From Takakia lepidozioides (Eukaryota > Plantae > Bryophyta), in contig CM060734.1 of assembly GCA_030704615.1 (NCBI GenBank), positions 29,636,001 to 29,700,000 of the forward strand: DNA of 64,000 bases, written 5' to 3'. Below the pieces are notes generated by a model. That model was not told the origin of the DNA. It did not search any database and saw nothing but the letters and a program-made list of their open reading frames with translations. The position numbers and the translations under genes are program-made. Below, one piece after another: positions 8,890-60,126 of the stretch (the first letter of the stretch is position 1; each line of letters opens with the position of its first letter).

Positions 8890-9357
8890 GTTGCTTGATG
8901 ACAGGAGCTCGACTTTACAGATTCACAGACACAAGCAATCCAGTTCTTCTCGGAATAGACAAAGATCTACCTGTGCAGATGATAAGTTCTCCAACCAGTT
9001 AAAGCCCTAACAAGCAGAGTCCTCTCAAATCAGCAGAACAACACCGTTCCTTCAGAGAAATCGAAGTACAAACGAGCCCGACCAACTATCCACTATCGAA
9101 CAGGTCAGAGTGGATTCAAGTCATACCTTCTTCAAGTAAAACTCCGATGCGAGGAGGCGCCAAGGAAAGCACGAGGAAAGAAACTTTGCGTGCCGAAAAG
9201 TTGAAGAGAAGACTCGCGCTTGGTTGTCGTTGTGGTCGGACGGTAGATACTTTCATCCACATGCAAAGGATGAACGTGGGATGAAAGTTATGGCCATAGC
9301 TAGCACGAGTGGGAGAGAAGAGAGGAAGGGAAGGCTGGCTATGGCGGAGGTTCAGAG

Positions 9358-28091: not shown

Positions 28092-28099
28092 ATCCTGGT

Positions 28100-29081
28100 A
28101 TTACAACAGGCATTGATATCATCCGGCACAGAGGTATGTCCAGACGCCCTCCAGATACGAGCATGTCCCTTATAACCTCCTGAGAGTTTACCTTCTGGAA
28201 TGACATGAGTTCTTTCACCTTGTCAAGGTAGTGCACTTCGGATTCATCTGCTTCATCTGTATTCTCTGAGCTTTTTGCGGACTCGTCCCCATCTCCAGAT
28301 CCTTTCCCCTCTGATCCTGTAGGCTTCGACCTCACAGTTTTCTGCACGATGCCATTCAGTTCTGACTAAGTGATTTGCAAATAGTGAATGGCGGTAACGA
28401 CAATCACTCTGTATCAAGGAAACTCATCATGAATGGTGTGAAAGAATTCAGCACAATCTACACATGCAAAGCCGAGACTGCCGTATTCAAAACAAAAGTG
28501 AGAGCGATAGCGAACGGCGTTAACGACAATCACAAAAGATAACAACATGCCGGATCGGTGTTGTGTAATGACATATATGTGCAACTGATTGGCGGCAACG
28601 ACAATCATTGTAGTTTAGGGAGAATAGTAAGTGCAGACTCTCTATTCAAACACATAGGTACATAAATCTCATGAGGAGAATCGAATGGCGTTAACGGCGC
28701 TCGCGATTCAGTAGTTCCTGCTAAAGAATGGAAGAGGAAGGACTCCTTGAAAGGCAATCAGACAGACTATATGATAAAACTTACTGGCACCTTCTTAGGT
28801 TTTGAAATTTGATCCCCTTCTGCAGCTTTCCTCTTCCCTCTCACATCTGCTGGAGTTTCTGTCTGCGCAAGGGTTTCTTGACCTTCTGCAGGTTCGGCGT
28901 TCCGCGTGCTTCCACCTTCTTCAGTGTCCCTGCGATTCATCTCTGCCTCCACAGGCTGGCGCACTCTTATCGCCGACTGTGTCGCAGCCGCTGCCTCAGT
29001 CTCCGTCTGCTCTTGTGAATCAGTCTCCGCGTTCACCTGCTGCCTTGGCCCTGTGTTCTCCAACAAACGACGCCTCGTCAT
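28100..29081 (-). pseudogene. Truncated MULE accessory gene, 2 exons (29081-28785 and about 28365-28100); acidic/basic N-terminus with NLS-like motif
   Basis: MTRRRLLENT...KRKAAEGDQISKPKKVP, then a GTAAGT donor, then ...LDIPLCRMISMPVV, cut at the junction with pol. Confidence 0.55.
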
Positions 29082-34704: not shown

Positions 34705-35416
34705 TGTCGCGCACCTCACTTCGGTAAGCTCCCTCCCTCAAGTCATAGTTACTCGCTTGATGCGCGCGCAACCTGGCCGCCGGGCCAACTTGGAGCTTCG
34801 GCTGCTCACCGGGACATAACGGTCCCCCCTTGATCTCCCAAAGAACCCTCCAACGATTTAGAACCAGCAGAATTCCTTTGGTAGTTGGCAGTCCGGAACA
34901 GCTCCCCACTCTTTGGTCGCTTTCGGCTCACTCGCTTACTCACTAGCTTTTGGTCACCAACGGCTTGCACCTTTCTCGGGGGTTACTACTCCCTATATAT
35001 ACTTCTGTAGCTATCCGCGGGGGTTTCACAAACAACCATGCCATTTTATGGCGAACCACGACGAACACCCTCGACTCCCGGTGATGAGTCGCGGTGAGTC
35101 TTGGCCCACTCACCACGGCCCCTATGGACCGTGATGAGTCCCAAGACTCCCCACGACTCCCACCACGAGGTCTTCGCCCCAGGGTGAGTCCTATGCCACC
35201 CCCACTAAGTCCCGCTAAGCTACCACCACCCCTTGTGGAACCACCCCCACCGCAACCTGGTGTGCGGGGCTCCACCTAGTGAGCGCCTCCGCCTCCTTGA
35301 GTGCTTTGGGCACTCAAGGTGCTTCGCCCCCATACCTATCGCTACCACTGCCCCCACCACAGGGGCAGCCCCTCTTGTGTCCCGACCCCTTGCCCTCAAG
35401 GCAAAGGGCCGCGACA
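34705..35416 (-). repeat. 5' LTR of a chromovirus (712 bp, TGTCGCG...CGCGACA)
   Basis: Perfect 7-bp terminal inverted repeat, adjacent to the PBS. PPR coding sequence resumes at 35417. Confidence 0.8.
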
Positions 35417-36955
35417 TTGAAAGCCTCCTCACCATGACCACTATGTGCACATCCTCCAATCATCACAGTCCATGAGACCACATCTCGCTTAGGCATTCTG
35501 TCAAACACATTGAGTGCATCCATCATACTCCTGCACTTGCAATACATACTGACAAGGGCATTCCCGAGTCCAACAACTGACTCAAATTCAGCTTTGATGA
35601 TGTTGGCAAGGAGCTGCTTGCCCCGTTCTAAAGCCTCCAGGCCAGCACAAGCGTTGAGGACAATAATAAAAGAGACAATATCTGCCTTCATGCCTTCTCT
35701 TTGCATGCGCTGAAAGAGTTAAAAAGACCATGACCATGCTGAGCAGATCCTACAATCATAGCAGTCCATGAGAGCCCATCTCGCTTGGGCATTGCACGTC
35801 AAATACTCGGATGGCATCCATCAAACTCTCACACCTGCAATACATGCTGACAAGGGCAGTCCCCACAGGGACATCCCCCTCAAGTCCAGCCTCAATGCAC
35901 GCACCACATCACGTTCAGCAATACTGTCAAACACTCCATTTGCATCCTTGATGCACCCACATTTGACATACATGTCCACCAGGGCAGTGTTCACAATGAC
36001 ATCGGGTACAATTCCAGATTTGATAATGTTACCATGGACCTCTTTGCACTTTTCCAGGGCTGCCAGGCTTGCACACGCATTGCAAATGCAAACAAACGTC
36101 ATGTAGTTGGGCTTCACCCCCTTCGCACATCATTTGCTCATATGTCTCCAAAGCCTCCATCCCGTGCCCTTGCTGTGCATATCCTGCAATCATCGCACTC
36201 CACGACACCACATTTCATTCAGCCATACTGTCGAACACTCCCTTCATACATGTCCACGAGGGTATTGTTCAGAATGACATTTGGTACAACTGCAACTCTG
36301 ACCATGTCGCCATGGACCTCTTTGCCCTTTTCCAGAGCTGCCAGGCTTGCACACGCATTGCTAATGCATAGAAACGTGATGTGGTTGGGCTTCACCCCTT
36401 GCCCCATCATCTGATCAAGGTCTCCAAAGCCCCCATACCATGTCCCTGCTGTGGATACCCTACAAGCATCGTCTTCAATGACACCACATCTCGTTCAGCC
36501 ATAGTGTTGAAAACTCCCTTTGCATCCTTAATGCACCCACATTTGGCATACATGTCCACCATGGTAGTGTTCACAATGACATCTGGTACAATTCCACCTT
36601 TGACGATGTCACCTTGCACCTCTTTGCCCTTTTCCAGGGCTGCCAGGCTTGCAAACGCACAGATGTGATGTGGTCGGGCTTCATTCCACCACCATCATTT
36701 GCTCACACGTCTCCAAAGCCTCCATCCCGCGCCCCTGCTGCGTATGCCCTGCAAGCATCGCGTTCCATGACACCACAGCATACATGTCCACCAGGGTAGT
36801 GTTCAGAATGACATCTGGTACAATTCCAGCTTTGACGAGGTCATCATGGACCTCTTTCCCATTTTCCAGGGCTCCCAGGCTTGCATACGCATTGCAAATG
36901 CAACCGAACGTGATGTGGTTGGGCTTCACCCCTTCGCGCATCATTTGCTCATACG
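35417..36955 (-). pseudogene. PLS-class PPR pseudogene fragments
   Basis: RDVVSWTVMIGG, ALVDMYVKCG, KPNHITF and ACASLAALEKGKEVH, with many frameshifts. Confidence 0.85.
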
Positions 36956-37168
36956 CCTGTACCTCTGTTTACTAACTTTGAAAGTCTCGAGGCTGAGCCA
37001 AACGCCTAGGCCCTTTTGGGGCCTAGTTATTGGGCAAACCACACACAGCAGGTTGATGCTTGTGTAAAGGGATTTCTAGAGGATATCTGGAAACCCGGAT
37101 CAATTGTTTAAACTGGGCGCGGAGTCAATGGCCACAAGGCTACGGCAAACAACGTCTTAGGAATACTC

Positions 37169-37495
37169 TGTCAAGTTATTTTATCACTAGTGTGAAACTA
37201 GCTAGGAAATAGCTAGCTTTTACATATTGACATTTGGGATTGGCCCAAGTGTCAATCTAGGGGTCAAGACAGATTTAGGCCCTGGAGTGGTTATCTTCAC
37301 GGCAAGCGCGGGAGGCTCATCTTTCTTGAGTTGAGCCTCACCGCGCCTAACTATGGCGCCGTAGTGTGGATTCCCCATGGCGCGGGGTGCACTTGGCTTG
37401 ATTTGTATTTGAGTGATGAGGTTATATATGCATGAGTTTATGCTTCAGCTTTGTGAGCTCGCATGAGCTTGTGCTTGTATTCTTCTTCTTTATCA
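37169..37495 (+). repeat. Repeat A1 (327 bp)
   Basis: Differs from A2 (47047-47372) by 6 substitutions and 1 indel on manual comparison. Confidence 0.95.
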
Positions 37496-37511
37496 CTCGA
37501 GAAAGATGAGC
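37496..37511 (+). promoter_or_regulatory. Putative self-priming primer-binding site
   Basis: CTCGAGAAAGATGAGC directly follows the CA of A1. It is the exact reverse complement of 47192-47207 in A2 and has 1 mismatch to 37315-37330 in A1. There is no TGG tRNA-type PBS. Confidence 0.8.
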
Positions 37512-39034
37512 TCGTATCTGTGAGTGCCAGATACGAGTTAGTTGTAGCACTTGTGGTTTTTGCTTGAGAATGAGAGAAACCAGGTTGTTTATGCAAGGAG
37601 CACCGTGGAGCTCTTGGTTGTTAGAAGCGGAGGCGATGTGGGTTACGAGGTGGTAGACCTGGCATTCGATCTTCAGCTTCAGAGATGAAAGCACCATACT
37701 GCAGGTAATTCCAGCACCTTGATGGTTTCAGATTGTGTACATGCATGAGCAAGCACGATTGGGAAAAGGACTAGTCAAGCAGGTTATAGTGGCTTTGGTG
37801 GCAAAGCTGAGAACTGGACTTGGGAATGCGAGCTTTCATTGTGTGAAGGATTGCACGACCAAGCGAAAGGGCTGATTTGGCTTGGGGCAAATCAGTGCAC
37901 TTTGTGGAGTATGTTGAGATTGGGTTTTAATCTCGAGCTTCAGCATTGAGAGGGCTCTTATCATGGCAAAAGCAGGGCTGGAACAGGAGCTAAGAGGTGC
38001 GGCAAGGCCATGGAATGTGCACCTAGGGTTTCAGAGCTTGGAAGAAGAGCTCTTGCACCACAAGAGGAGTGTCTTGTGGCTGGAAATGTAAGCCTTAGGG
38101 TTTCAGGAGCTTGGCAAGGGCTGTGGAGTGCTTAATCTTGTCTTAGAGAGAGCATCAAGGAGCTAAGGAGCCAAGATAGGGGGCTGATACCTCTTGTGTG
38201 AAGAGGTTGCATGTGTGGAGCATGTATTCAGCTCATTGAAGCTTCAATCTTCAAGCTTGGAGGGCAAGCAAGGAAGAGGGAAGGGCTGACTTCCCTTATG
38301 TGAGGGCAATGCATGTGTGGAGCATGCTTTCGGCCTGTTGTTGAAGGCTTGTACTTTCAAGTTTGGGAGTGCAAGAAAGGAAGGAAGGGGCTGGTTTCCC
38401 TGTAGGGCATGTGTGGAGCATGCTTCCAGCCCGCTGAAGCTTGTATTTTCAGGTTGGTGGGTGCAAGAAAGGAAGCAAAGGGGCTGATTCTCTTGTGGTG
38501 AGAGCGGGGCATGTGTGGAGCATGCCTTCAGTCCATTGGGCTTTTGTTTTCAAGCTTTAGAGAACTAGAAGGGAATGTAAGGGGCTGATATGCTCTTATG
38601 TGACAGTCCGACACTTGTAGAGCGTGTTCTAAGTTGGGGTTTCAACCTCAAGCCTAGATAGAGCATGGCTCTTGAAGTGGCAGATGTAGGGGGCTGGAAT
38701 AGGCTCTAAAACAAATGCTATGGCCAAGGAAAACGCTTGAATGAGTGTTCACAATGGCTGGAAATTAGCAAGGCTTGGTTGTTTGCCATTGAGTTTAGTG
38801 GCGTGTTTGGGGAGTCTAAGTGAGAAAGAAGGCTTGGTTTGTGGCAACCATCTTCCTCATGGCTTAGGGCTACTATTGGTGGTGTGTGGGAGCCGAAAGA
38901 GCAAGAATACCTTGCTGATTTCTTCACAGCCGCCATAGCTCGGTGCAAAGAAGCCTAGAGTCCAAGAGACACAAACCCTAGCTTGGCGTGGCTAACCCCT
39001 TGGAGAAATGGCTAAACTGCCATGAGTGGCCATG

Positions 39035-39880
39035 GGGGTGTGAGGGCTGTGAGGGGCTATGACAGGGTGTGCCCGTGGCCTGTGGGGCTATGAGGGCTGT
39101 GACATGTGCCCGTGGGGCTGTGACGGGCTGTGACACCTGTGATGGGCTGTGATGTGGGGCCTTGTGGCCTGTGGGGCTGTGACGGGCTATGAGGGGCTAT
39201 GACAGGCTGTGCCCTATGGCCTGTGGGGCTGTGAGGGCTGTGACAGGCTATGGTGGCTGTGGCCTGTGGCCTTGGGGCTGTGATGGCTGTGGCGGGCTGT
39301 GACAAGCTGTGCCCAGTGGCCTGTGGGGCTGTGACGGGCTGTGATAGGCTGTGCCCTGTGCCCTGTGGCCTGTGGGGCTGTGACGGCTGTGAGGGGCTGT
39401 GGCCTTTGGGGCTGTGACCCCTGTGACCTGTATAGGGCTGTGACAGGCTATGCCATGTGGCCTGTGGGGTGTGGCGGGCTGTGAGGGGCTGTGCGGGCTG
39501 GGACAGGCTGTGCCTGTGGCCTGTGGGGCTGTGACGGGCTGTGGCGGCTGTGACAGGCCTGGCCTATGGGGCTGTGAGGGCTGTGACAGGCTGTGGCCTT
39601 TGGGGCTGTGACCCTGACCTTTGTAGGACTGTGACAGGCTGTGGCCTTTGGGGATGGGCTGTGACAGGCTGGCCTGTGGGGCTGTGACCCTGTGACCTTT
39701 GTAGGGCTGTGACAGGCTGTGCCTGTGGCCTTTGGGGTTGTGATGGGCTATGACAGGCTGTGACAGGCTATGGCCTGTGTGGGGCTGTGACGGCTATGAC
39801 GGCTGTGACCAGTGAGCTGTGTGGGCCTGTGCTGGTCTGTGGTGCCCCGTGTTGACCTGTGGACGGCCTGTGCTGACTCG
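39035..39880 (+). repeat. G-rich degenerate ~10-bp tandem array (GGGCTGTGAC/GGCCTGTG) in the 5' leader of element 1
   Basis: Dozens of ggctgtga/gcctgtgg units. Confidence 0.9.
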
Positions 39881-40746
39881 TGGAGGCACTGGTGGACTGC
39901 CTAAGGACTGGCATGTGGTCTTGAAGGCCGAATTTTGAAGCTCGTGGAGGGCGGTTTGAGGAGTATCTTCATGATATTCCCATGGTCATGCAAGTGAGGG
40001 AAGAGTGGAGAGGAAGAGTTGGGATAAGGGCATGTTGGGTTTAGGCATTGCTTAAGCTTCTCTTCCTCGTAGTTTCCACCCTCTCATTAGGCCAAGACCT
40101 TTCTGTAGGTGGAGGCAAGAGTCAGTCCGGGTTTGGGCTGGGATGTCCTTGCAGGAGCAACACCGTGGAGTTGTTTTTGGTGTCGGGGAGTTGTCGTTCT
40201 GATTTCTTGTGTTTGGATCCCCTCCATACCTGCATGCTTGACTGTGCGCATGCTAGTTTTGTGTGGGCGCTTGTTTTTATAGGTGATTGGTCCGGATTTG
40301 ATCACCGGCCAGTCCTAGAGCATGCTGTCGATGGTGAGGCTGGGGTGATGACCAACCAGACCATCATTGTTTCTCATGTGGTGAGGTTGGATGTGATGAC
40401 CAGCCAACCATAGGAGTGCTTGCGGTGGATGCAGGTACAGGTGTAGGCTATGTTAAGAACTTAGTATTCCAACCATAAGCCGCAACAGGTTCTCTACCCG
40501 GTTACCTTGTGGAGAGGGGGTTAGGGACATGTTCATGACCGGTTTGAGTGTCAACACGAGGTGCCACTAGTTGCTGGGGACAGTGCGGTTCGAGCACTAG
40601 CGATACTAGTGGGTACACGAGACGAGGTGTGCGGTTTAGGCCACCTTCACCTCCTGTGTCTTCTACGGAAGGTTCTGATTCGGATTGTGAATCAAAGGAC
40701 TCATACCGGCGGTGCAAGTTGTTTCTTGCCATTGTTGTGGGACACA

Positions 40747-43100
40747 ATGGAGGAGATGTATGGAGCTACCAAGGGGCCACGAAGGTACTCTGGGGCGGTG
40801 GGCACCATCGAGTTGGATGATTTTATCCAAGAGTTTGATAGTTGGTGTGATTTGCAGCAAATGCGCAATCCACAACTATTTACGCCCTTTCATGGCATGG
40901 AAGGGGTTGTTTCAGCACCTTGAGGGGCCGCCTATGGATGATTACCATGAGTTCAGGCGGGGGCATGAGGTTGAGATCGAGGAGTGGAGGATGTACTGGT
41001 CACCCGACTATGTCTCCATCACTAGGGGCACTAGAGTCCGAGGGCAGTGGCTACACCTGCCGCTGCACCGGCAGCTTCAGCAAGCAGCAGTGGGACTAGT
41101 AGGACTGGTGGTACCGTAGCTACGATGTCCACCCAAGCCACTACCGCACCAGCACCAGTACCGTGCCTGCCTTCAACCCTGTTGTGGAGTTCTTCGAAGA
41201 GTTGAGAGGGAACTACCAAGGGGTGAGGACAGAGAAGTTGCGGAGCTTGCAAGAGTTCCAACGGAAGCCGACTGAGAGCTTGAGGGAGGCTTTCACTCGC
41301 ATGAGGCGCTTGATAAATGTAACCCAAGGGGTTACGGAAGCTCAGGCAGTCCAATTCTGGTATGGGATATTGGACAAGGAGCTGAGGAGAAGGGTGCGGG
41401 ATGCAACTCTCCTACAAGCGGCCCAACCCACCTTAGCAAATGTGTTTTTGCTGGCAGAGCGGATAGAGCTCAACATGGTGGAGGAACGAGTGGTCATGGT
41501 GGGATTTGCTAAGGAGACACCACGGTAGTGGTGCTCCTAGCCAACCACTACCTCAACGTGCTCAAGGCAACAATGGGGCTCAGGTGAAGCTCAGGGAAGG
41601 GCAGAGAGGACCTCAGATGCAGGGGTCTCTCCCTTCATTTGCTGGCCAACAACGGCCGGATGTGGTGTGCTGACATGTGGAGGACCCCATGTCAAGAAGG
41701 ATTGCCCAGAGGGAGGCAAAGGGCCGACACATGCACAGCCTGCACAGTTGCAGTGTGGGCATTGTGGCAAGTACGGGCATGGAGAAGCCCAGTGCTATGG
41801 TTTGCATCCTGAGTTGCGCCCAGGCCAGTTCCAAGGGAACAATGGTGGCGGGGGCGAGGTGGAGCAGCCCAGAGAGGACGAGGTGGCCAGGCACGAGGTG
41901 CAGGCCAAGGGCAAGCTCAACATGGCCAAGGACGCGGAGGTCAGGGTGGTGACCAAGGCATGGCCAACCGGCTTCAGCAGCTAGAGCAGAGGCTCGCTGC
42001 CATGGCACAGCTTAGGTGTACCGGCTCCAAGGCCGGATGGTCCACCTCCTGCTCCTGAAGGAGGAGACTTGGGAGCATGGGATTCATGTGCGGGCAGCAC
42101 TACCACTAGTGAGGGGTGCCACTACCACTACCACTATGTGCGGGGCGGACTACCACTAGTGCAAGTGGAGTCAGCTGCGGCAGTGACTCGAGGAGCAGCA
42201 CGAGTTCCTGAGCCACGAGGTGCGGAGGTGAAGTTGGATCCACAGCGTGGGGAGGCAAGCCGTCAGGCCAGGCTTCCTCAGTCATTCACATTGGCGAGAC
42301 AGTGTCGACGCCGTCCATGGCACCTAGTTCTCGCCCGACTGTTACCGAGGCGGAGGTTACTATGCCATTGGGGAGAGCTACACGGGCAGCACCACTACCT
42401 AGTGTTGCCAAGCTGGGGGCGGCACACAGCTGTGTGCCAGGCTCCATTGTTCTCGGCTACCATGATTGCGACGCCGGGGGTAAGACCAGCTGAGGTGTTC
42501 AGGCTGGCAGCTACACTCTGTGAGAGTGGGGAGGTTACTTCATCTTCTGCGGAGATAGTGGGAGGTGTAGTGCCGGAGGGATCCTCGGATTTGAGGGTCA
42601 AGACTGCCACGGCGGCGCCATGGCAAGCTGCAGCTGCCAGGTTGATGGAGCTGCCAGCTAGGCCAGCCATTGAGCGCGCCATGGTGACACCTGGAGTTGT
42701 CATGTTAGACAACCAGGATGGCATTTTCTGTTTGAGTGGACCGGCAGGCAAGAGGTACCGGCCACTGCGGGTCTTGTTGGACTCGGAGCTCAGCCATTGA
42801 TGCTGGGCAGAGCTGCTATTGCAGGCTTGGGCCTCACGGAGGCGATATGGAGCCTTGTCCTTTCCAGATACAGACGTCTCTGGGAGGATCGGAGCAGGCT
42901 CGGGGCATGACACGGCGTGAGTTGGCTATCAGACTACGGCCGGATCACCCTACAGATGGCTCAGTGATGCGAGCCAAGGCCATTGTGACAGACGCGGTCT
43001 CGTACGATGTCCTGGTTGGTGGGGGCAGTGTTGTACCCCATGGGCTTCACCCTGGATTTTTGGGAGGAGTCAGCTTCCTATAGGCCTGGATGGCAGTCAG
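40747..43100 (+). pseudogene. gag (two zinc knuckles) and aspartic protease of element 1, frameshifted
   Basis: ELDDFIQEFDSWCD, FQRKPTESLREAFTRM, C-x-TCGGPHVKKDC, CGHCGKYGHGEAQC, LRVLLDSG and YDVLVG. Confidence 0.85.
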
Positions 43101-43488
43101 GGGAGGGCCGGCGTGTGCAGCTCCCTGTGACGTTTATAGGAGGAGTTGCGGTTGCCCAGCGAGGCAAGATGCCGACACTAGCAGCATTCACAGTGCAGTG
43201 AGTTGGCCTGGAGAGTTGCTTGAGGGCAACGCTCATTCAGAGGATGTGCCACCTCCGGGAGAGCAGGATGACATGTATGGTATGGCGGAGTTGCCTACCA
43301 TGGTTGCTCAGACTCCATTGTGGGGCACGAGCAAGGATTTGCAGCGGGATGCTGATCGACGGGTGCAACAAGCCTGGGTGGAGGCTTTTGTACCGTCAGG
43401 AGAGGAGGAGAGTGCGGGGATTGCACCAGGACCACCTCAGTTGTCTCCATTGGACACCACACCTATTGTGTGGCAGTATCCGGATGAA

Positions 43489-44440
43489 GGCATTTGTCTT
43501 CTGGACTTGTTTGGCGGGATCAGCACCGGATTGGCTGCTGTGTTACAGGCAGGTGTACGAGTTCGGCGTTACCTGTATGTGGAGAGGGATGAGACTGCAC
43601 GACGCGTTTCACTTCGCATGTTGCTCAGTTGGTGCAGCGGTACCCTGAGTTGTTGCCGGTGTCTGCAGTTCGTGGATATCAGCAGGCCTTGCCAGCAGAC
43701 ATTTCGTTGCTGGGGGCGCAGGATTTGGAGCGGGTTGGCTCCATTGATCTGGTAGTGGCAGGTTGGCCCTGCCAAGGGCATTCATCAGCGGGCATGGCAA
43801 TGGATTGCGAGACTCGAGGTCGGGTCTGTTTTGGGAGATGGTGCGGGTTTTGCGCCACTTGCAGCTTCATCAAGCTGTATCTCCAGCATACATCTTGGAG
43901 AATGTGCCACTGATGGGCGATTCTCGGGCCAGGGTGATGGCCAGTGTGCATCAAGTCCGGTCGTGGCTTGGGTCAGCAGTGTTGCTAGATGCAGCTGCAG
44001 TGGGGTCACGGGCTCATCGTCCACGGTTATGGTGGACTAACTTGATGCCACCGCACTGCTCAAGCGTGCATTTGATGGGGTGCAGCGGCCAGCACACCTC
44101 ACAGTGGATAGCATTTGGACACAGGAGGCAGTCTCAGCGTGTGAGACACGATGACCGTTCGCCTTTGGCAGTGGTCAACAAGGTGGGTCAACCACGAGCA
44201 GCATACCTACACTGCTCAGCTTCCCAGGATCGCATGCTTTCCGGGATAGTGGACCTGGCCTCCTGTGGGATGCTCAGTTGCAGCAGTTAGTGGAGCCTAA
44301 TGCTGACGAGCGTGAGCGGGCAATGGGTTTTACCACTGGTACCACGGCGGTGTCGTCTCTTTCTGAGGCATCACGTCGTCAGGTGTTGGGGCAAGCAATG
44401 GATCTCAATTGCTTGACCTGGATTATCAGCTTGGCTATGG
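43489..44440 (+). pseudogene. DNMT3-like C5 cytosine DNA methyltransferase domain within the pol region, frameshifted
   Basis: Motifs in canonical order: I LLDLFGGISTG, II YLYVERD, IV DLVVAGWPCQG, VI YILENV, VIII AHRPRLWWTNL, IX ERERAMGF, X RRQVLGQAMD. Confidence 0.9.
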
Positions 44441-44894
44441 CTGAGCAACGCAGAGTGCGGAGTACACTTCCCTCGATGGTCTCTCTGCCTACCGAGACGG
44501 TACAGGCAGTGAGTGGGGGCGAGCATGTGAGGACCACGGGTGTAGACATCCATGGCACACGTGGGAGGTGCTCGAGGTTCAGAGGGAGTTGGCAGCCAAG
44601 GCGGCTGTGATGGATGAGGTTGGGGATTCTTCTCGGGTTGAGGAGGTCCTCAAGGATGAGATGATGGGGCAGGATGAGGCCTTGTCATTGACTGAGCAGG
44701 CAGGGAGTACTGCTCAAGAGGTTGCGGCATAGCAACCACGGGACGCGTCCTCTACCTCTAAGTCTGCTGGACTTAAGGTTGCAGTTACGAAGGGCAATTG
44801 GGAGCCTGACATTGGACTATTGTCACTAGAGGAGAGAGACGACGTATACGGCGGTTCCTGAGGCTTACAGAATTGCTTTGCCTCTCGTGCTACG

Positions 44895-46597
44895 GTGGAG
44901 GAGCATGAGAGACATGTTCAGGTTGTGCATCGACCGGGTTTGGTCAATAGGGATGCGGATGGATTGAGTCGCAATCCATGCACGAGCCAGCAGGATGACA
45001 CTGGAGCTCGTGGCATGGTGAGACGGACGAGGAGATGGTGTCGGGATGGCATGCATCTGCCTTTTTGTGTATCTTGGCATCGGAGGTCAGGTTGGACCTA
45101 CAACAGGGATGACTGTAGACGGAGTGTCTGAGGACCCTGAGGCTAGTGATGAGCCAGGTGGTGCCAGAGATATACATGAGGATTCGGTTGTGTTGGACTA
45201 CCTCCGCACTGGAGACACGACAGCTAGTGTGACTGCCAAGGAGAGGGATCGGATCCTGCAACGAGCCAAGAGGTTCAAGTGGGAGGGGATACACCTGCTT
45301 CGAGTGTGGGAGGATGGTCGGGTGAGGATTGTGCCTCACCCCACACAGCGTGCACGGTTAGTGCGGCATGCCCATGAGGAGTTGGGGCATTTTGGAGTGC
45401 GACGCACTCACAGTTTACTGCAGGGGCAGTATTGGTGGCGTGGTATGCATAGAGGTGCAACAGTTTCGTGGCTAGGTGCATGGTGTGTGACAGGGTGCGT
45501 GCTTCATTCAACGCCCCTACACCACAGTTGCATCCTTTACCAATCATGGGATTGGGCTACAGGTGGAGTCTTGACTTCGCAGGACCGTTGCCACTGACTA
45601 TGCGCCACCACAGATATGTGTTGGTGATGGTGGAGCACTTCTCCAAGTGGATTGAGTTGGTTCCATTGCCTGACAAGGCTAGTGAGGGGGCTGCGTATGC
45701 ATTCTTGGATCGTGTGCTTAGCCGATTTGGTGCTCCAGCTGAGGTACTCACGGACCAAGGGAGAGAGTTCTTGGGGGAGTTTCAGGCTTTGTGTGATAAA
45801 GCCTTGATAGACCACCGCACCACTTCTCGGGATCATCCTGAGGCCGATGGCTTGGCAGAGAGAGTTGTTCAGACGGTGAAGAGGGGTTTGCGCAAGTATG
45901 GCTTGCAGAAGGGACACCTAGGAGATTGGGATCTTCAGGTTCCTTGGTTAGCCATGGGCTACAGGTTCAGCAAACAAGCATCACTTGCCTCTTTCTCTTT
46001 GGCCGAGAGCCGGATTTGCCTGCAGCCATTCGTAGGGACACTGCTCAAGTCCTTAACCTTGACGATCCGGACGTGTGGGTACGTGCATGTGATCAGCGTG
46101 CAGAGTTGTTCAAGAAAGTCATGCCCATGGCTTTTGAGAACCTTGCCATTGCACAGCACCGTGATACGTTGAGGTATGCCACTATACGTGGTGGAGGATA
46201 TCGTCCTGGGGTTCGGAGGTTTAGCCCTGGTGACTATGTTTATTTGCAGCAGACTGCTCCTACGACTCTGGATGTTACTGCAGGGCGTGTTATTCTGAGG
46301 GTTCGAGAGGTGTTGCCCTCAGGGGTCCTGATCTTGGAGGGTCGGGATGGCATGACTTGGAAGGACCATGTGCGTAATTGTGCGCCATGTCACCTTCCCA
46401 ATGTCGATGGCAGAGTTGACCCAAACTTGGCAGTGGTACCTGCAGGTTTGAGGTGCATGCTCTGTGGGTCTGCCAAAGGGGCAGCCACCATGCTGGTGTG
46501 TGATCGATGCTCAAGGGGTTGGCATATGGGATGCTTGACACCACCTCTTGAGAAGGTTCCTGACGGAGATTGGTTGTGTCCACACTGCTTGGGATAG
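44895..46597 (+). pseudogene. RNase H tail plus DDE integrase with C-terminal PHD finger
   Basis: VVHRPGLVNRDADGLSR; HEELGHFG...YWWRGM...CMVC; SLDFAGPLP, TDQGREF, GLAERVVQ; CMLC...CDRCSRGWHMGCLTPPLEKVPDGDWLCPHC. Confidence 0.9.
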
Positions 46598-46856
46598 TGG
46601 CAGTGGACATGACTGGAGGCAGCTAACAAGACATGGGAGGCCAAGCTCATAGGAGTCAATACATGAGATCCCAAGCTCAAGTTCACAGGTTGCAAGACGG
46701 CGACTAACGATGGGGCAACTCTTGCACCCGGCCTCTTGATCTATCGAGTTGAGTGTAGTAGGGATAGTGGTGGAGGACTTAGTGAGGCTATGGTCACTAT
46801 CACATCTTGTGGCTACCTGGACTTAGAGGGACCTAAGCACCAGCTAGGGGGGCGAT

Positions 46857-47044
46857 TGTGTGGACTAGTGACTGCCATAGTGGGGCAGCATAGTGGCAGC
46901 CTAGTGACTGACTAGTTGTAGCCTAGTGGTTGGACTAGTGGTGGACTAGTGGTGGACTAGTGATATACTAGTGTGTGGCGTGCACATGTGTTGTGTGGTT
47001 TTGGACAGCGATGTAGTTGTGTAGCGATATGTATGCGCACGACA
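46857..47044 (+). repeat. Repeat B1 (188 bp), preceded by polypurine tract AGGGGGG (46846-46852)
   Basis: TG...CA ends, rich in GGACTAGTG units. Matches B2 (47374-47549). Confidence 0.95.
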
Positions 47045-47046
47045 GC

Positions 47047-47372
47047 TGTCAAGTTATTTTACACTAGTGTGAAACTAGCTAGGAAATAGCTAGCTTTTAC
47101 ATATTGACATTTGGGATTGGCCCAAGTGTCAATCCAGGGGTCAAGGCAGATTTAGGCCCTGGAGTGGTTATCTTCACGGCAAGCGCGGGAGGCTCATCTT
47201 TCTCGAGTTGAGCCTCACCGCGCCTAGCTATGGCGCCGTAGTGTGGATTCCCCATGGCGTGGGGTGCACTTGGCTTGACTTGTATTTGAGTGATGAGGTT
47301 ATATATGCATGAGTTTATGCTTCAGCTTTGTGAGCTCGCATGAGCTTGTGCTTGTATTCTTCTTCTTTATCA
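47047..47372 (+). repeat. Repeat A2 (326 bp)
   Basis: Direct repeat of A1, joined to B1 by GC and to B2 by T. Confidence 0.95.
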
Positions 47373-47373
47373 T

Positions 47374-47549
47374 TGTGTGGACTAGTGACTGCCATAGTGG
47401 GCAGCATAGTGGCAGCCTAGTGACTGACTAGTTGTAGCCTAGTGGTTGGACTAGTGGTGGACTAGTGATATACTAGTGTGTGGCGTGCACATGTGTTGTG
47501 TGGTTTTGGACAGCGATGTAGTTGTGTAGCGATATGTATGCGCACGACA
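47374..47549 (+). repeat. Repeat B2 (176 bp), right terminus
   Basis: B1 minus one 11-bp unit and one G. Followed by the TSD ACTC. Confidence 0.95.
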
Positions 47550-47729
47550 ACTCTCTCTATCTCTCCCTCCAGACGAAAGGAATTCAAGGTCAGATGGTTG
47601 GGTCAGCTGCAATGTAGGACTAAAAACACATACCCTAAGTTAATCGACTCTATCTTGGAAGCAGGATTGCCCTGTCAAACAGGTTAAGTCCTGGCGGAAG
47701 AAACGGTTTTCAAGGATTTGATTCTGAGT

Positions 47730-49215
47730 CCGCAAACACAAACGAACATGATGTGGATGGGCTTCACCCCTCGTGTGCACCTGCTTTCCAGCTTCAAGGC
47801 CTTTCATCTTGATGCACTTATGCAAGAGACAGACATACGTATCTGAATCTGCTGAAATTCCTCCTTAGTTTAAAGTTTGTAGAGCCTCTTTCAGTCTGCT
47901 TGCCTCACAAAGCATCTTCACATGCCCAGAAGTGCCAGAAGAGGCATTGTGGACTCCCTTTCTTGATCCTCTTTCAGAAGTTGTGGTAACGGTATATGCC
48001 CATGAATTTGAGCATAATAATATATGTGCAACACCCGTTGTCAGGAGCTGATGAATCGATGGGGTGTGATGGCAACTTGTCACTGAATGTTAAGACTGCA
48101 CTCTTTATGTTGCGCTAGTCAGTTGACCATTTCCCCATGCAGGTTTCTTGTAATTGGGGGTCAAGTGCTTTAAGTATGGCATTGGGGATGAGGTCGGGGC
48201 CGGGGGCCTTAGTTTTGGAGAGGGCTTTTAGGCATGAATCATAGAGAACATCTGGAGCTTGAAGTCCGGCCCTGTTGGATGAGTCTGGACCCACACTCTA
48301 TCCATGCTCCTTCAGCTATCCATGCCTATGTACAAATCATGCATACATCCTTGCTTTGCTGCTAGCAGCTGACAATGACAGCCTAGATTTGTTCTAGGAA
48401 ACACCCAACTCAACTTATCACACTAGTTCCTATGTTCAATTGCATCTGCTACTCTCTGTAATCCAACAGGCATTTACCTTTTTGCCTCGATTGTCCCACC
48501 ATTAACAGGGGTCAGAAAAGTATTCATTCCATAGCTTCTCATCTTTGTTACCTGTTTCTCGATACTTTCATGTTGTCACATTGGCAGTATCATGTCAGTC
48601 ACTCCAAACTATCAAAGGTTTAATCAACCAGCTTACTTGCAGAATTCAACATGAAAATTTAGGGCTGATTCTGATAATAGGCATCTCAGGGCCGAGTCCG
48701 ATGAGAGGCAAAAACAGGCTGAAATAGGTCGAAGAAGAGGGTGCCGTCACCATATTGCGTGAAACCCCTCCGCGCTCAAGGATGCCGGGTGGCTCAATTC
48801 TGGCTTTGATAATATCAGCATGGATCTTTTTGCCCTTTTCCAGGTCTGCTAGGCTGGCACATGCATCGAGAACGGAAGTGAATGTGACTTTGTCCGGTAC
48901 CCACCCTTCCCATATCATTTGCTCATAGGTCTCCAAGGCCTCCTGAACACACCCTTCCTGAGCATATCCTGCAATCATCGCATTCCATGAAACCACATCT
49001 CGTCCAGCCATATTGACAAAAACTCGACGGGCCTCCTTCATGCTCCCGCACTTGGCATAGATGGCAGCAAGGGCAGCCTCTAGAATGATATCTGGTGCAA
49101 TTCCAGCTTTCATAATGTCAGCTTGGACCTGTTTTCCCTTTTCCAGGGCACCTATGCTGGCACACGCCGCTGAGAGCAAAAACGAACGTGACCTTGGTGG
49201 GCGTCACCCCTTCAT
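47730..49215 (-). pseudogene. PLS-PPR gene fragments (N-terminus at 47750-47980; PPR motifs at 48790-49215) with duplicated upstream sequence
   Basis: RLKEALQTLN, HKCIKMKGLEAGKQVH and RDVVSWNAMIAGYAQEG. The non-coding stretch 48380-48680 is a diverged copy of 57410-57720. Confidence 0.8.
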
Positions 49216-51254: not shown

Positions 51255-54200
51255 TTCACAATCTCCAAAGCCTCCCTGCCACACCCAGTACATAAATAGA
51301 GTACACATAAGTTCCTTGCTTTGCATCCTCAATGCACCCACATTGAGCATACATGTCCACCAGGGCAGAGTTCAGAATGACATCTGGTACAATCCCAGCT
51401 TTGACATTGTCACCATGGACCTGCTTTCCAGCTTCCAGACCTTTCTTGGCATGAATCCACATCAGAGTTTGTTGGCACTAGGAAAGGGTTGAGACTGAGC
51501 TGCTCAACTACTCCCTTGTCTTACTGGGTTTACATAGTGTGCCAAGCACAACATCAGGTGCCAAAGCCTCCATCCAGTGCCCCTGCTATGCATACCCTAC
51601 AAGCATCAAGTTCCACGACACCACATCTCGTTCAGCCATACTGTTCTCTTCATGCATGTCCACGAGGGTGTTGTTCAGAATGACATGTGGTACAATTGCA
51701 GCTCTGACAATGTCGCCATCAACCTCTTTGTCCTTCTCCAGAGCTGCCAGCTTTGCACACGCATTGCAAACTATCAAAGGTTCAAAATTGCAGAAATCAA
51801 CATGAAAATTTAAGGACGATTTCGATAAGAGGGGAAAACAGGGTGAAATGTTTTGAAGGCACTTCATCTGCCCAGACAATCTTCTCAGCTCAGCATGGAT
51901 TTCCTTAATTCTGGGATGCAACCTGTCATCTACAGCGAAGGTGTGCACCCTGTTGCAAATCTCAATGCAGTAGCGACCTGGCTCCTTTCTAACCCCTCTG
52001 ACCTTCATCATTCTTCTCACCAACTCCTGCTTTTGCGATGCAACCATGCACCCCTTTGCTCATTTCCAGGGCTGCCAGGCTTGCAAACACACAGACGTGA
52101 TGTGGTCGGGCTTCACCCCTTCCCCCATCATTTGCTCATAGGTCTCCAAAGCCTCCATCCCACGCCCCTGCTGTGCATACCCTGCAAGCATCGCATTCCA
52201 CGACACCACATTTCATTCAGCGATATTGTTGAACACTGCCTTCGCATCCTCGATGCTCCCACATTTGGCATACATGTCCACGAGGGCATTGTTCAAAATA
52301 ACATCGGGTACAATTCCAGCTTTGACGATCACCCCTTCGCAGAGTACACATAAGTTCCTTGCTTTGCATCCTCAATGCACCCACATTTTGCATACATGTC
52401 CACCAGGGCAGAGTTCAGAATGACATCTGGTACAATCCCAGCTTTGACATTGTCACCATGGACCTCTTTACCCTTTTCCAGGGCTGTCAGGCTTGCACAA
52501 GCATTGCAATCACAAATAAATGTGATGTGGTTGGGCTTCACCCCTTCCCCCATCAATTGATCATAGGATTCCAAAGCCACCAACCCTCGTCCCTGCTATG
52601 CATACCCTGCAAGCATAGCGTGCCACAACACCACATCTTGTTCAGCCATAGTGTTGAAAACTACCTTCGCATCCTTGGCATGAATCCACTTTGGATAATG
52701 TGAGTATGCACTTGCTTTCCAGCTTCCAAACCTTTCATCTTGACGTATCTGAATCTGCTGAAATGCCTTCCACATTTGGCATACATGTCCACGAGGGTAT
52801 TGTTCACAATGACATCTAATACAATTCCAGCTTTTGCACCCATTCTGCTAAAGAAGTTTTACTTGAAGTTTATCTCACGCTTACGAGACGTTCAGACACA
52901 TGAGCAAACGAGCTATGATAAAACCCATCGAGACAGTTCAACGGCAGTGGCAACATACAGATGCACAAAGTGCTTCCGCACATGCATTGCAAACGCACAC
53001 AAACGTGATGTGGTCGGGCTTCACCCCTTCGCACATCATTTGCTTATATGTCTCCAAAGCCACCATCCCGCGCCCCTGCTGTGCATATCCTGCGAGCATT
53101 GCGTTCCACGACACCACATTTCGTTCAGCCATATGGTCGAACACTCCCCTTTGCATGCTCGATGCTCCCACATTTGGCGTACATGTCCACCACGATATTG
53201 TTCAGGATCACATCTGGTACGATTCCAGCTCTGACAATGTCGCCATGCACCTCTTTGCCCTTTTCCAGGGCTGCCAGGCTTGCACATGCATTGCAAACGC
53301 ACACAAACGTGATGCGGTTGGGCTTCACCCCTTCGCACATCATTTGCTCATACGTCTCCAAAGCCTCCATCCCGCGCCCCTGCTGTGCATATCCTGCGAA
53401 CATCGCACTCCACGACACCACATCTCGTTCCGCCATATTGTTGAACACTCCCTTTGCATGCTCGATGCTCCCACATTTGGCATGCATGTCCACCAGGGTA
53501 TTGTTCAGGATGACATCTGGTACAATCCCAGCTCTGACGATATCGTCATGCACCTCTTTGCCCTTTTTCAGGGCTGCCAGGCTTGCACATGCACTGCAAA
53601 CGCACGCAAACGTGATGTGGTCGGGCTTCACCCCTTCCCCCATCATTTTCTCATAGGTCTCCAAAGCATTCATACCACACCCATGCTTGGTAAATCTTGC
53701 CAACATTATATTCCATGTGATCAAAGATCGTTGAGGCATTCTGTTGAACACTTGGTGAGCATCCATGATGCTCCCGCACTTAACATACATGTTGACAAGG
53801 GTGCTGAGGAGAAAAACATTTGGCGTGAATCCACTTTGGATAATGTGAGTGTGCACATGCTTTCCAGCTTCCAGGCCTTTCACCTTGATGCACTTATGCA
53901 AGAGACAGACATACGTTTCTGAATCTGCTGAAATGCCTCCTTGGTCACTTAACGTGCCTCTTTTACACTCCCGCATTTGGCATACATATGGACTAAGGTA
54001 GTCTCCAAATTAATAGATGACTCCAGCTTCCTTGATGTCAGCATGGATCTACTTCCCTTTTTCCAGTGCTCCTAAGCTACCACAGGCATCGAGAATGGTA
54101 ATAGACGTGACTCTGTCAGGCATCACCCTTCCAGAGCATTCGCTCATAGATTTTGAGAGCCTTTTTGCCATGTCCAAGCTGAGCATACCCTGTGATCACG

Positions 54201-57179
54201 GCACTCCATGAGACCACATCGTGCTTAGACATTCTGTCAAACACTTCATGCGCATCCTTCACACTCCCGCAACTGGCATACATGTGGACCAGAGCGGTGT
54301 CCAGAATATTGTCTGACTGAATTCCAGTTTTGATGATATCAGAATGGATTCCCCTGCCACTTTCCAGGGCTATTGTACTTGGCTATAGCTATCCTCCACA
54401 TATTGTTGGAGTCACATCATGATCTTGAGTCAGGGAATGAAAGTAATGCCTGCCTTCATCCACTAGGCCAACATGGCTACATGGAGAGAGCAAACACAAA
54501 TGAAGGTGATCTTGTCCAGCTTCAAGCCTTCCTTTTGCATTCCTTCAAATAGTTGCAGGGCCTCCCTATGGCAACCGTGCTGGGCATATCCTGCCATCAT
54601 CACATTCCACGACACCATATCTCGTTCCATATTGTTGAACACTTCCTTTCCATCCTTGATGCTCCCGCACTTAGCATACATGTCCACAAGGGTATTGTTC
54701 AGAATCATATTTGGTACAATTCCACCTTTAACGATGTCAGCATGGACCTCTTTGCCCTTTTGCAGAGCTGCCAAGCTGGAACACGCATTGCAAACGCAAA
54801 CAAATGTGATCTGGTGTGGTCTCACCCCTTCCCACATCATTTGCTCATAAATCTCCAAAGCCTCCATCCCGTACCCATGCTGGGCATATCCTGCCATCAT
54901 TGCATTCCACGTGCAGCCATATTGTCGAACACTCCCTTTGCATCCCTGATGCTCCTGCATTTAGCGTACATGTCTAGGAGGGCAGTGTCCAGAATGACAT
55001 CTGGTACAATTCCAGCTCTCATGATGTCACCATGAACCTCTTTGCCCTTTTCCAGGTCTGCCAGGCTTGCACACACATTGCACATGCACACGGACGTGAC
55101 GTGGTTGGGCTTCACCCCTTCGCAGATCATTTGCTCATAGGTCTCCAAAGCCTCCATCCAACAACCAAGCTGGGCGTATCTGTGATCATCGCACTCCAGG
55201 ACACCACATCCCGTTCAGCCATATGGTCAAATATCCCACTGCATCCTTGATGCTCCCACATTGGTATACATGTCTATGAGGGTAGTTTCCAAGATGATAT
55301 TTGGTACAATTCCAGCTTTCCTGATATCACAATGGACCTCTTTACCCTTCTCTAGGGCTGTCAGATTCGCACACACACTGCAAATGCAAACAAACGTGAC
55401 CTGGTTGAGTGTCCCCCCTTCTAGGATCATTTGCTCATAGGTCTCCAAAGCCTCCCTCGCACACCCATGCTGGGCATATCCTGCTATCACTGCATTCCAT
55501 GTCACTACATTTCGTGCCACTATATCATCAAACACTACCTTGCATCATTGATGCTCCCGCATTGGGCATACATATCCACCAGGGCGGTGCCTAGAATGAC
55601 ATCTGGTATAATTCCAGCTTTCATGATGTCAGCATGGACCTCTTTTCCCTTTCCCAGGGCCGCCAGGCTTGCACACGCATTGCAAATGCAAATGAATGTG
55701 ACCTGGTTGGGCTTCACCCCTTCGCGCATCATTTGCTCATATGTCTCCAAGGCATTCTTACCACACCCATGCTTGGCAAATCCTGCAATCATTATGTTCC
55801 ACGAGATCAAACCTTGTTGAGGCATTTTGTCGAACACTTGGTGTGCATCCACAATGCTCTTGCATTTGACATACATGTTGACAAGGGTGTTGTGTAGAAA
55901 CACATTTGGCTTGAATCCACTTTGGATAATGTGAGCGTGCACCTCCTTTCCAGCTGTTAGGTCTTTCATCTTGATGCACTTATGCAGGAGACAAACAGAA
56001 GTATCTGAATGTGCTGAAATATCTCCTTGGTTCAAAGTTTGCAGAGCCTCTTTCAGTTGTCCTGCCTCACTTGGTGTCCTTTGCCCAAAAGCACAAGAAG
56101 ACATCTTCTGGACTCCCTCTCTTGGTCCCCTTTTGGAAGTGGTTGTCATGGTGGAAGTGCCTGATTTTATCAGCTGTGGTCCCACTCCTGCTTCCAGTTG
56201 ACCATCTACCCATGCAGATTTCTTGCAGCTATCAATCTTGGTACTCTTGTGCTTGAGATCTGGCCCTCTGGCATGGACCTGGACCCACAACTCCATCACG
56301 ACCTCCAATTATCCCTGCCTTGGCAAAAACAAAATCTCCACCTTGCTGCTGAGAGCTAAGATGACAAACCATAATTTATCTAGCAAACACCCCAACTTCA
56401 CCTTCCAGACCTTTCATCTTGATGCACTTAAGCAAGAGACAGACAAACGAATCTGAATCTGCTGAAATACCTCCTACATTTGGCATACATGTCCACGAGG
56501 GTATTGTTCTGCTATGCATACCCTGCAAGCATCGTGTGCCACGACACCACATCTCGTTCAGCCATAGTGTTGAAACTCCCTTCACATCCTCAATGCACCC
56601 ACATTTGGCATACATGTCCACCAGGGCAGTGTTCAGAATGACATCTGGTACAATTCCAGCTTTGACGATGTCACCATGGGCCTCTTTCCCCTAGTTTTCC
56701 AGAGCTCCCAGGCTTGCACACGCATTGCAAACACAAACAAATGTGATGTGGTTGGGCTTCACCCCTTTATGCAGCATTTGCACATAGGTCTCCAAAGCAT
56801 TCCTACCACACCCATGCTTGGTAAATCCTGCCAACATTATATTCCACGTGATCAAAGATCGATCGTTGAGGCATTCGGTTGCACACTTGGTGAGCATCCA
56901 TGATGCTCCCGCACTTAACACATACATGTTGACAAGGGTGTTGAGGAGAAAAACACTTGGCGTGAATCCACTTTGGATAATGTGAGTGTGCACCTGCTTT
57001 CCAGCTTCTAGACCTTTCATCTTGATGCACTTAAGCAAGAGACAGACAAACGTATCTGAATCTGCTGAAATGCCCCCTTGGTTTAAAGTCTGTAGAGCCT
57101 CTTTCAGTCTGCCCGCCTCACAAAGCATCTTCACATGCCCAGAAGTGCCAGAAGAGGCATTGTGGACCTCTCTCTTCAT
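51255..57179 (-). pseudogene. Cluster of fragmented PLS-class PPR (E+/DYW-type RNA-editing factor) genes
   Basis: Several copies of the same N-terminus (QGGISADSDTFVCLL.KCIKMKGLEAGKQVH) and near-identical PLS triplets. An E2/E+ PG-box fragment VRKEPGRYCIEICNRVHTFAVDDRLHP lies at about 51860-52030. The longest ORF is 283 aa. Confidence 0.9.
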
Positions 57180-58499
57180 CCTGTTTCAAAAGCTGTGGTC
57201 ATGGTTGAGGTGCCTGATTTTATCAACTGTGCCAGCAGCTGCTTTTAATTGACCATCTACCCATGCAGGTTTCTTTAACTATAGATCCACAGGGAATCAT
57301 AGGTAATCTTGTGCTTGAAATCTGGCCCTCTTGGATGAATCTGGACCCACACTCTATCCCTGGTCCTTCAGCTATCACTCATGCATACTTCCTTGCCTTG
57401 CAGCTGATAATCACAGCCTAGATTTGTTCTAGGAAACACCCAACTCAGCTTATCACACTAGTTCCTATGCTGAATTGCGTCTGCTACTCTCTATAATCTA
57501 ACAGGCATTAACCTTTTTGCCTTGGTTGTCCCACCATTGACTGGGGTCAGAAAAGTATTCATTCCACAGCTACTCCTCATCTTTGTTACGTGTTTTTGGA
57601 TACTTTTTTGTTGTCATGTTGGCAGTATCGTGTCAAAGTCACTCCAAACTATCAAAGATTCATTCAACCAGCTAACTTGCAGAATTCAACATGGAATTTT
57701 AGGGCCGATTCTGATAAGAGGGGGAAAAAGGATGAAATGTGTTGAAGAAGGTACCTTCAATAGCAGTGCCTGATTTTATCAATTGTGCTGCTGCTGCGCT
57801 TCCAGTTGACCATCTACCCATGCAGGTTTCTTGCAGTTATGGATCCACAGGGAATCATAGGTAATCTTGAGCTTGAAATCCGGCCCTCTTAGATAGCCTT
57901 TCTTGTGTGAAGGCTTTCTGTAGTAATTTCTGTTCCCTTTTGTTTTGTCACATACACTCACCCCTCTCTCACATGATTCAGTCCATTCGCATCTACAAAG
58001 CAAAGACAAGGAGCTCAACCAGTATAAGAATTTCACTCGAGTCTTTGAAACTCGCCGTCTCCGCAAACTTCCGTTACAACCGACACACAGAAATGACGAT
58101 GACGTGGCTGTCGACGCCGACGTGGAACTATGGCACCCTATTCACGCTCCACGCTAAACTAGCTCTTGACCTTCGGTTCGCTAGAATTGTACATACGTGA
58201 TGGGCAACTTTTTAAGTTTTTTAACCTTTTTACAAACCCTATAAGCAACTTTTTTTTTTTTTTTTTTTTAATAATTTTTTTTTAAAGGAAACCTCATGCC
58301 CTTGAGGAGGGGGGAAAATTAACCCCCTTTCATTTATGGGCCATGAGACCTACATGATGATCAACGCCCAGACATACCGTCGTCACAAACAATCCTACAC
58401 ACGGGGTAATGCAGCGGGTTTGAACCCTGAACCACCAGGGTGACACACTCTGCACTTACCAGCCGACGTGTTTTTTTTAAATCTTTTGCACTTTGATTT

Positions 58500-60123: not shown

Positions 60124-60126
60124 AAG

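Follow-up and report, generated by a model that had tools for sequence, protein, structure and literature searches.

The order A1-B1-A2-B2 of split direct repeats is described for the retroelements PAT, TOC1, Kangaroo, Ngaro, and Viper, all of them tyrosine-recombinase retrotransposons (PMC4157794), and the DIRS structure is defined as A-coding-B-A-B (PMC5890265, legend to Fig. 1e). Canonical Ty3/gypsy elements, including the self-priming Tf1/Sushi and Tcn1, have the gene order gag-protease-reverse transcriptase-RNase H-integrase (gag-PR-RT-RH-INT), a polypurine tract (PPT), TG...CA ends, and a 4-bp target-site duplication (TSD) (PMC6317226). For KnitGypsy-Dnmt3 from the alga Klebsormidium nitens, a DIRS-type repeat structure with Gypsy domains is given (de Mendoza et al. 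2018; PMC5890265, legend to Fig. 4c). Here, we analyzed a stretch of 64,000 nucleotides from the moss Takakia lepidozioides (GenBank assembly GCA_030704615.1, contig CM060734.1, positions 29,636,001 to 29,700,000 of the forward strand; in the following, the window), which contains a retrotransposon at positions 37169-47549. This element has the layout of the PAT group, but unlike its members the lineage carries a DDE integrase, no recombinase was found, the TG...CA ends are flanked by a 4-bp TSD, and intact relatives possess a PPT and a gypsy RT. With canonical Ty3/gypsy elements it shares the gene order, the PPT, the TG...CA ends, the 4-bp TSD, and predicted self-priming. Unlike them, it lacks two whole long terminal repeats (LTRs), its TG...CA ends lie inside the LTR, a PHD finger takes the place of the chromodomain, and the integrase core is one residue shorter than that of Ty3. 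As shown below, the split layout is a lineage-wide trait, and insertion is of the DDE-integrase type for both forms of the element that we observed.

In the window copy, A1 (37169-37495) is followed by the internal region, B1 (46856-47044), the dinucleotide GC (47045-47046), A2 (47047-47372), and B2 (47373-47549), all on the plus strand. An earlier note on this DNA had proposed such an A-int-B-A-B layout, as well as TGTC...GACA ends with ACTC on both flanks; all of the repeats and both ACTC copies (37165-37168 and 47550-47553, strand not assigned) were found in the window sequence. The B coordinates of that note agree in general, with B starting one base earlier. A1 and A2 differ by six substitutions, all of them transitions, and one gap over 326 aligned bases. 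B1 and B2 show no substitution over 177 bases and differ by one 1-base and one 11-base gap. A single A (46855 and 47372) belongs to the end of A as well as to the start of B. The GC between B1 and A2 lies within the perfect palindrome GACAGCTGTC. We read GACA-GC-TGTC (47041-47050, strand not assigned) as an uncut junction of attachment (att) sites, whose GC spacer is not present at either end of the element: the TGTC at the start of A1 represents the left att end and the GACA at the end of B2 the right one. B1, which ends with CACGACA, would correspond to the upstream part of U3, and A1 to the downstream part of the LTR, that is, the end of U3 followed by R-U5. B2 would be joined to A2 at an end-to-end junction.

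We then compared 83 related loci, 80 of them the best among 495 confirmed in metagenome assemblies and three from genome contigs; nine weak bacterial matches (L084-L092) were dropped. A B repeat could be scored in 64 of the 83 loci; the other 19, which lie at contig ends, carry nested insertions, or belong to families outside the repeat library, gave no scored B of 60 bases or more. The loci fall into four repeat families (f1-f4). Counts of 3' ends refer to distinct insertions, each insertion found in two assemblies being counted once. The 3' end reads B-A-B in 27 distinct cases (including L057, the middle part of which is divergent) and stops after a single B in another 23, a count that excludes L032 and L054, whose contigs end at B. 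An ordinary LTR end, B-A-host, occurs in none of the 83 loci, and B was not found upstream of the 5' A in any of the 14 loci with a visible upstream A. L049 and L072 stop inside A at the contig end. L063 was considered as a conventional B-A-host end and ruled out, since its A is followed by part of the element's own pol in inverted orientation. Among the 13 complete relatives, five are A-int-B-A-B and eight A-int-B; neither they nor the window copy have two complete direct terminal LTRs. No clear solo A-B unit was seen among the related loci, and no relative was found in a viral contig collection. The repeats of f1-f4 are mutually unalignable, and their integrases are about 50-85% identical to the query protein P0003. 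Family f2 stands apart from the others in both the integrase and the RT tree, the outgroups of the integrase tree being few and long-branched.

The inference of the earlier note, a gypsy lineage with a DDE integrase inserted as a circular permutation of B-A-int-B-A, is thus upheld by the relatives. Its single layout is recurrent, but about half of the informative relatives are A-int-B. For the window copy, which is decayed and lies within a patchwork of pieces of a pentatricopeptide repeat (PPR) pseudogene and a long interspersed nuclear element (LINE), one might suspect that an ordinary B-A-int-B-A element was rearranged on a single occasion or wrongly assembled. Given the same layout in 27 independent 3' ends and five complete relatives with flanks of their own, and its report for K. 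nitens (PMC5890265), this explanation is refuted at the level of the lineage, and we give it next to no credence. The records of L081, L082, and L083 are metagenome-assembled genomes of cyanobacteria with plant- or alga-type retrotransposons, probably because eukaryotic DNA contaminates the bins; in L083, the layout of the repeats cannot be seen.

Exact 4-bp TSDs flank 7 of the 13 complete relatives and are all different (CATA, ATGT, CCTT, TACA, ACTA, CCAA, TTTT). Four others match at three of the four bases (the left end of L059 being uncertain). In control pairs of flanks taken from different elements, an exact match occurred in 1 of 156 cases and a match at three of four bases in 10 of 156. 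We assign the insertion of both the A-int-B-A-B and the A-int-B form to the DDE-integrase type. Independent copies start with TGTC-A, end with B-ACA, and carry different 4-bp TSDs, which the earlier note had named as support for its reading. The Ty3/gypsy groups Phygy and Selgy are short elements with conventional LTRs, and Phygy preferably targets NCGN (PMC6317226); this motif was found in none of the eight exact TSDs (window copy and seven relatives).

The spacer between B and A is two bases long in 28 of 31 distinct junctions (GC 13, AC 9, GT 3, AT 2, AA 1), and the remaining three (L044, L057, L079) are mis-hits of the search pattern. AC, GT, and AT are the products expected from C-to-T decay of GC. 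Where B meets A, the palindrome ACA-GC-TGT is thus conserved. The start of B directly behind the PPT and the end of A have no conserved TG or CA across the families, and therefore the only TG...CA pair of the element is located in the middle of the unit B+GC+A. A fifth family, represented by L046 (about 350 bases past the PHD finger), has a longer perfect junction palindrome, CCCGACA-GC-TGTCGGG.

The coding region of the window copy identifies it as a dead, decayed Ty3/gypsy element. Pfam searches and tblastn detected, all frameshifted, a gag in several frames (40691-41981, with Retrotrans_gag at 41103-41525 and two zinc-knuckle-like motifs recognized by eye at 41541-41981), a protease-like region (42802-43096, by tblastn with a segment of the K. 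nitens protein P0061), a C5 cytosine methyltransferase (43483-44439, called Dnmt3-like because it resembles that of the K. nitens element), an RT/RNase H remnant (44440-44975), and a DDE integrase (45340-46597) with an H2C2 zinc domain, a D-34-E core, and a C-terminal PHD finger (46454-46588), all on the plus strand. The Pfam matches are strong for Integrase_H2C2 (E 1.9e-9), rve (3e-14), and PHD (3.4e-11) and weaker for gag and DNA_methylase. Only the tail of RNase H (44904-44975) is left; the RT and most of RNase H are lost, with 465 bases compared to about 1655 in L017, a deletion of about 1.2 kb. The window copy is therefore unable to move by itself. The gag-PR-RT-RH-INT order is complete in the complete relatives and, apart from the deleted part, kept in the window copy. 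The methyltransferase lies between protease and RT, as in P0061, and is also present in relatives of f1-f4 and in P0057 (named Sphagnum fallax by its source). In an algal-type branch (L083; P0071, P0073, P0086) it follows RNase H instead of preceding RT, so it was moved or gained twice.

The integrases with names that are closest to that of the window copy come from the liverworts Calypogeia and Riccia (87-89% identity), followed by Sphagnum, Klebsormidium, Closterium, and chlorophytes, a ranking that by itself makes a bryophyte host likely. Its best match among solved structures is Ty3 Gag-Pol (E 1e-11). In the core (45754-45861), the second D and the E are separated by 34 residues, one fewer than in Ty3, a spacing shared by 101 of 103 pattern-matched proteins (120 fetched). 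This lineage-wide D-34-E core could relate to the unusual substrate. No tyrosine recombinase was matched by Pfam in 82 stop-to-stop frames of at least 60 amino acids on both strands of the window (15 scanned at E<=0.1 and 67 at E<=0.01), nor in 34 frames of L017 and 40 of L038, all of at least 70 amino acids; these scans cover frames above the respective length. This agrees with the earlier note, which saw a gypsy-type integrase and no tyrosine recombinase. That note had overlooked the methyltransferase and the PHD finger, as well as the deletion that removed RT and most of RNase H.

These data bear on an origin like that of PAT, TOC1, or Ngaro, in which the transcript would run from A1 to B2, B2 would derive from the B2 of the parent, and a tyrosine recombinase, own or borrowed, would insert the circle with the DDE integrase as a passenger. 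The A1-B1-A2-B2 layout is indeed that of PAT, Ngaro, and Viper, which likewise occur in a single orientation (PMC4157794). But no recombinase was matched in the window element or the two complete relatives, the integrase core is 87-94% identical to its closest relatives, the PPT is flush with B1 and the primer site with A1, and variants specific to B2 are missing. Moreover, the TG...CA ends with variable 4-bp TSDs already largely refute such an insertion, and we consider this origin very improbable.

In all four families, the G-run of the PPT is directly followed by B; in the window copy, this is the region GCTAGGGGGGCGA (46843-46855, plus strand). Directly 3' of A1, no TGG-type tRNA site is found. 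Instead, the 12-17 bases that follow can pair with a complementary stretch within A. The primer-binding site of the window copy (37496-37512, plus strand) is a perfect 16-base complement of A2 (47192-47207), and its predicted self-primer in A1 (37314-37330, plus strand), likely the 5' end of the transcript, pairs with it over 17 bases including G-U pairs. In 11 of 17 tests from the four families, 9-16 bases are paired (0-3 of 200 random controls were as good). In the four families, whose sequences differ, the distance from the complement to the end of A is 120-190 bases, and because the paired sequences differ between families, both sides of the pairing have changed together. TATA-like words were seen by eye about 26-32 bases upstream of the self-primer site in f2 and f4 and are not clear in the window copy or f1. 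The complementarity between the primer site and A points to self-priming, as judged from base pairing. Such priming is predicted in REXdb for Tcn1 and Tf1/Sushi (PMC6317226).

The two B repeats of one element resemble each other more than those of different elements. In f2 (14 elements), the distance between B1 and B2 is 0.079 within an element versus 0.114-0.122 between elements, and 16 of the 22 variants with two carriers occur in both B repeats of a single element, against an expectation of about 1 in 27. The own B1 is the nearest neighbour of B2 in 6 of 14 elements, and no column of the f2 alignment separates B1 from B2. The A|B joint of f2 is ragged: 8 of 18 cases share one exact join, and most of the others lack 1-3 bases or are rearranged. 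The B|A spacer of f2, unlike this joint, is not ragged; in f1, the A|B joint has one length in four of five elements. These patterns would fit a cycle in which B2 arises each time as a copy of B1 and is newly joined to A.

We regard as probable that self-primed reverse transcription produces B-A-int-B-A, that its two ends are joined, and that the integrase then opens the internal palindrome and inserts the element with a 4-bp stagger. In this scheme, the transcript would begin about 145 bases inside A1, and its initial 12-17 bases would fold onto the site past A1, where they would serve as primer of the minus strand, as in Tf1/Tcn1. The PPT would prime the plus strand, which would make B+GC+A the true LTR. 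Imprecise joining of the two ends of the complementary DNA (cDNA) would generate A|B, and the integrase would cut past CA on both strands at the B|A palindrome in the upstream one of the two LTR copies, with the GC overhangs being lost. The product is what we observe: A-int-B-A-B with TG...CA ends and a variable 4-bp TSD. All steps that precede this product are inferred. HIV-1 integrase cuts an internal palindromic LTR-LTR junction in vitro after CA on both strands (PMC1905944), and 2-LTR circles can feed integration (PMC4372172). The A-int-B form could derive from a one-LTR circle, from cutting of both junctions, or from later recombination between B1 and B2; besides being primary or generated by recombination, it may in part reflect collapse during assembly. 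Being without a 3' copy of R, it would be a dead end.

The same end product would result, with only the order of steps changed, if no free circle existed and the integrase cut the upstream LTR of linear cDNA, inserting the short B and the long A-int-B-A together, with the host sealing A|B in the chromosome. The ragged A|B joints would be in line with this order, as would L063, where the end of A2 is joined to the inverted own pol like a free end. The position of the upstream site, 100-190 bases from the cDNA end, could also explain the bias in site choice addressed below. But the two fragments would have to be held together throughout integration, and failed sealing predicts many A-int-B-A-scar copies, of which there is at most one (L063) among about 51 informative 3' ends. 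We therefore consider linear cDNA as the substrate unlikely.

Several observations weigh against the joining of cDNA ends followed by cleavage of the internal palindrome, or limit the evidence set out above. The main difficulty is the use of only one of two junctions: since a two-LTR circle has two identical B|A sites, the mirror form A-B-A-int-B would be expected as often, but it is found in none of the eight A-int-B copies with a visible 5' flank. In addition, L074 does not end at the usual place: its right end coincides with an att-like repeat some 15 bases further upstream, so that left and right ends do not necessarily stem from a single junction. B of L074 has two such repeats in tandem, and the element ends at the first of them, flush with the TSD, which suggests alternative att use or a small deletion. 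The TSD is absent from 2 of the 13 complete relatives (L030, L039). At the window copy itself, the LINE fragment of the left flank stops at most two bases from the insertion and is not resumed on the right. This flank gives no independent confirmation of the empty site, which is why the TSD claim rests on the relatives. The trend between B1 and B2 is the same in f1 (five elements), but weak, and the signal could include gene conversion or assembly effects. As for priming, 6 of the 17 tests, all on old copies, gave only 5-8 paired bases, and the fold of window positions 37314-37520 with the 5' end on the primer site (z -7.7) was calculated for a segment chosen after the match. Finally, the relatives come from short-read assemblies. 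L081, L015, and L046 run B-A-leader, which is compatible with a collapsed assembly as well as with an ordinary 5' LTR; in L082, which comes from the assembly that contains L081, the order is B-A-B-flank.

A broader view, towards which we lean slightly, is that of an old and widespread gypsy lineage of streptophyte algae, liverworts, and mosses in which both att sites have moved from the cDNA ends to the middle of U3. Its only way to integrate would be an end-joined intermediate, opened by the DDE integrase in a restriction-enzyme-like manner at a palindrome with a 2-base spacer, the layout of recombinase elements would have arisen by convergence, and the choice of the junction would possibly be made by its own methyltransferase at the CG/CHG sites of the palindrome. 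Like the model for the window element, the junction of retroviral 2-LTR circles involves a DDE integrase that cuts a palindromic att-att site after CA on both strands (PMC1905944, PMC4372172). The retroviral palindrome is the joint of the cDNA ends, and cutting it restores the normal provirus by a side path (PMC1905944, PMC4372172), whereas that of the window lineage is situated within the LTR, contains a spacer of two bases, and seems to be the sole att of the element. Retroviral LTR circles are taken as dead ends or a reserve and junction cutting by integrase as a side reaction (PMC4372172, PMC1905944). With its apparent dependence on cleavage of an internal palindrome, the lineage provides a natural integrase, together with a substrate of 10 bases, for testing such chemistry, and it suggests a route from ordinary LTRs to split direct repeats without a recombinase.

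The layout itself was already known from one figure legend of 2018, contrary to the earlier note, which knew of no description (PMC5890265, legend to Fig. 4c); the anatomy and the proposed mechanism are our addition. KnitGypsy-Dnmt3 and the window element have in common the Gypsy domains, the C5 methyltransferase inside pol, and the A-coding-B-A-B repeats (PMC5890265). P0061, presumably a copy of KnitGypsy-Dnmt3, also shares the place of the methyltransferase and the D-34-E core. In the RT tree, P0061 joins f1, f3, and f4 at 89/93, a moderate support short of the starred level; in the integrase tree, it falls into the open base. The window copy, having no RT, is placed by its integrase alone. 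It is nearest to liverwort and moss integrases, while KnitGypsy-Dnmt3 comes from an alga. The 2018 paper devotes one legend sentence to the layout and concerns K. nitens only (PMC5890265). Its accessible text mentions neither a TSD or att site nor a mode of priming, a PHD finger, the A-int-B form, or a mechanism, although its figures may show more, and a keyword search of the supplement text returned neither 'KnitGypsy' nor 'TSD'. 'KnitGypsy' appears in no other paper of the literature searched. This literature, mostly titles and beginnings of abstracts without subscription papers or Repbase, contained no report of TSDs, an internal att palindrome, self-priming, the A-int-B form, or a spread in bryophytes. 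Gypsy-7a of Chlamydomonas has a PHD finger but near-conventional LTRs (PMC9940879, figure legend), and the accessible part of a 2026 preprint on adenine-methylase retrotransposons revealed no such layout. REXdb was built from LTR-FINDER predictions demanding two LTRs with TG/CA ends (PMC6317226) and would for that reason likely miss the window lineage. More generally, LTR-finding tools with this demand would likely overlook these multi-copy bryophyte elements.

Between the primer-binding site and gag, the window copy has a long 5' leader (37513-40690, plus strand), which contains dispersed repeats of about 100 bp (38181-38594) and a GC-rich degenerate tandem array (39026-39802). A hairpin-like motif, CCGG-ATTTGATCA-CCGG, is located at 40291-40308, just past an AG resembling a splice acceptor. 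It is common to the window family and the distant f4 (L081, about 1900 bases past the PHD finger) and is possibly an RNA signal or an intron boundary.

A second copy of the same lineage (60959-64000, 74-86% DNA identity) runs off the window, within which its 5' terminus was not found. A 500-base segment of its leader (60959-61465, matching 40020-40520) is inverted relative to its gag; the leader of L081 has the orientation of the first copy. The element is inserted into a cluster of PPR genes and pseudogenes (2100-3560, 35400-36950, 47700-49200, and 51300-57200). From the translations, read by eye, we take the minus-strand region 3682-6816 to be a LINE, a fragment of which forms the left flank of the element (36955-37166). 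Likewise, 25290-28100 (minus strand) is presumably an unrelated gypsy element with a D-35-E integrase, about 58500-60125 the end of a CACTA-like transposon, and 8275-8922 (minus strand) an ESCRT-III/CHMP1-like gene.

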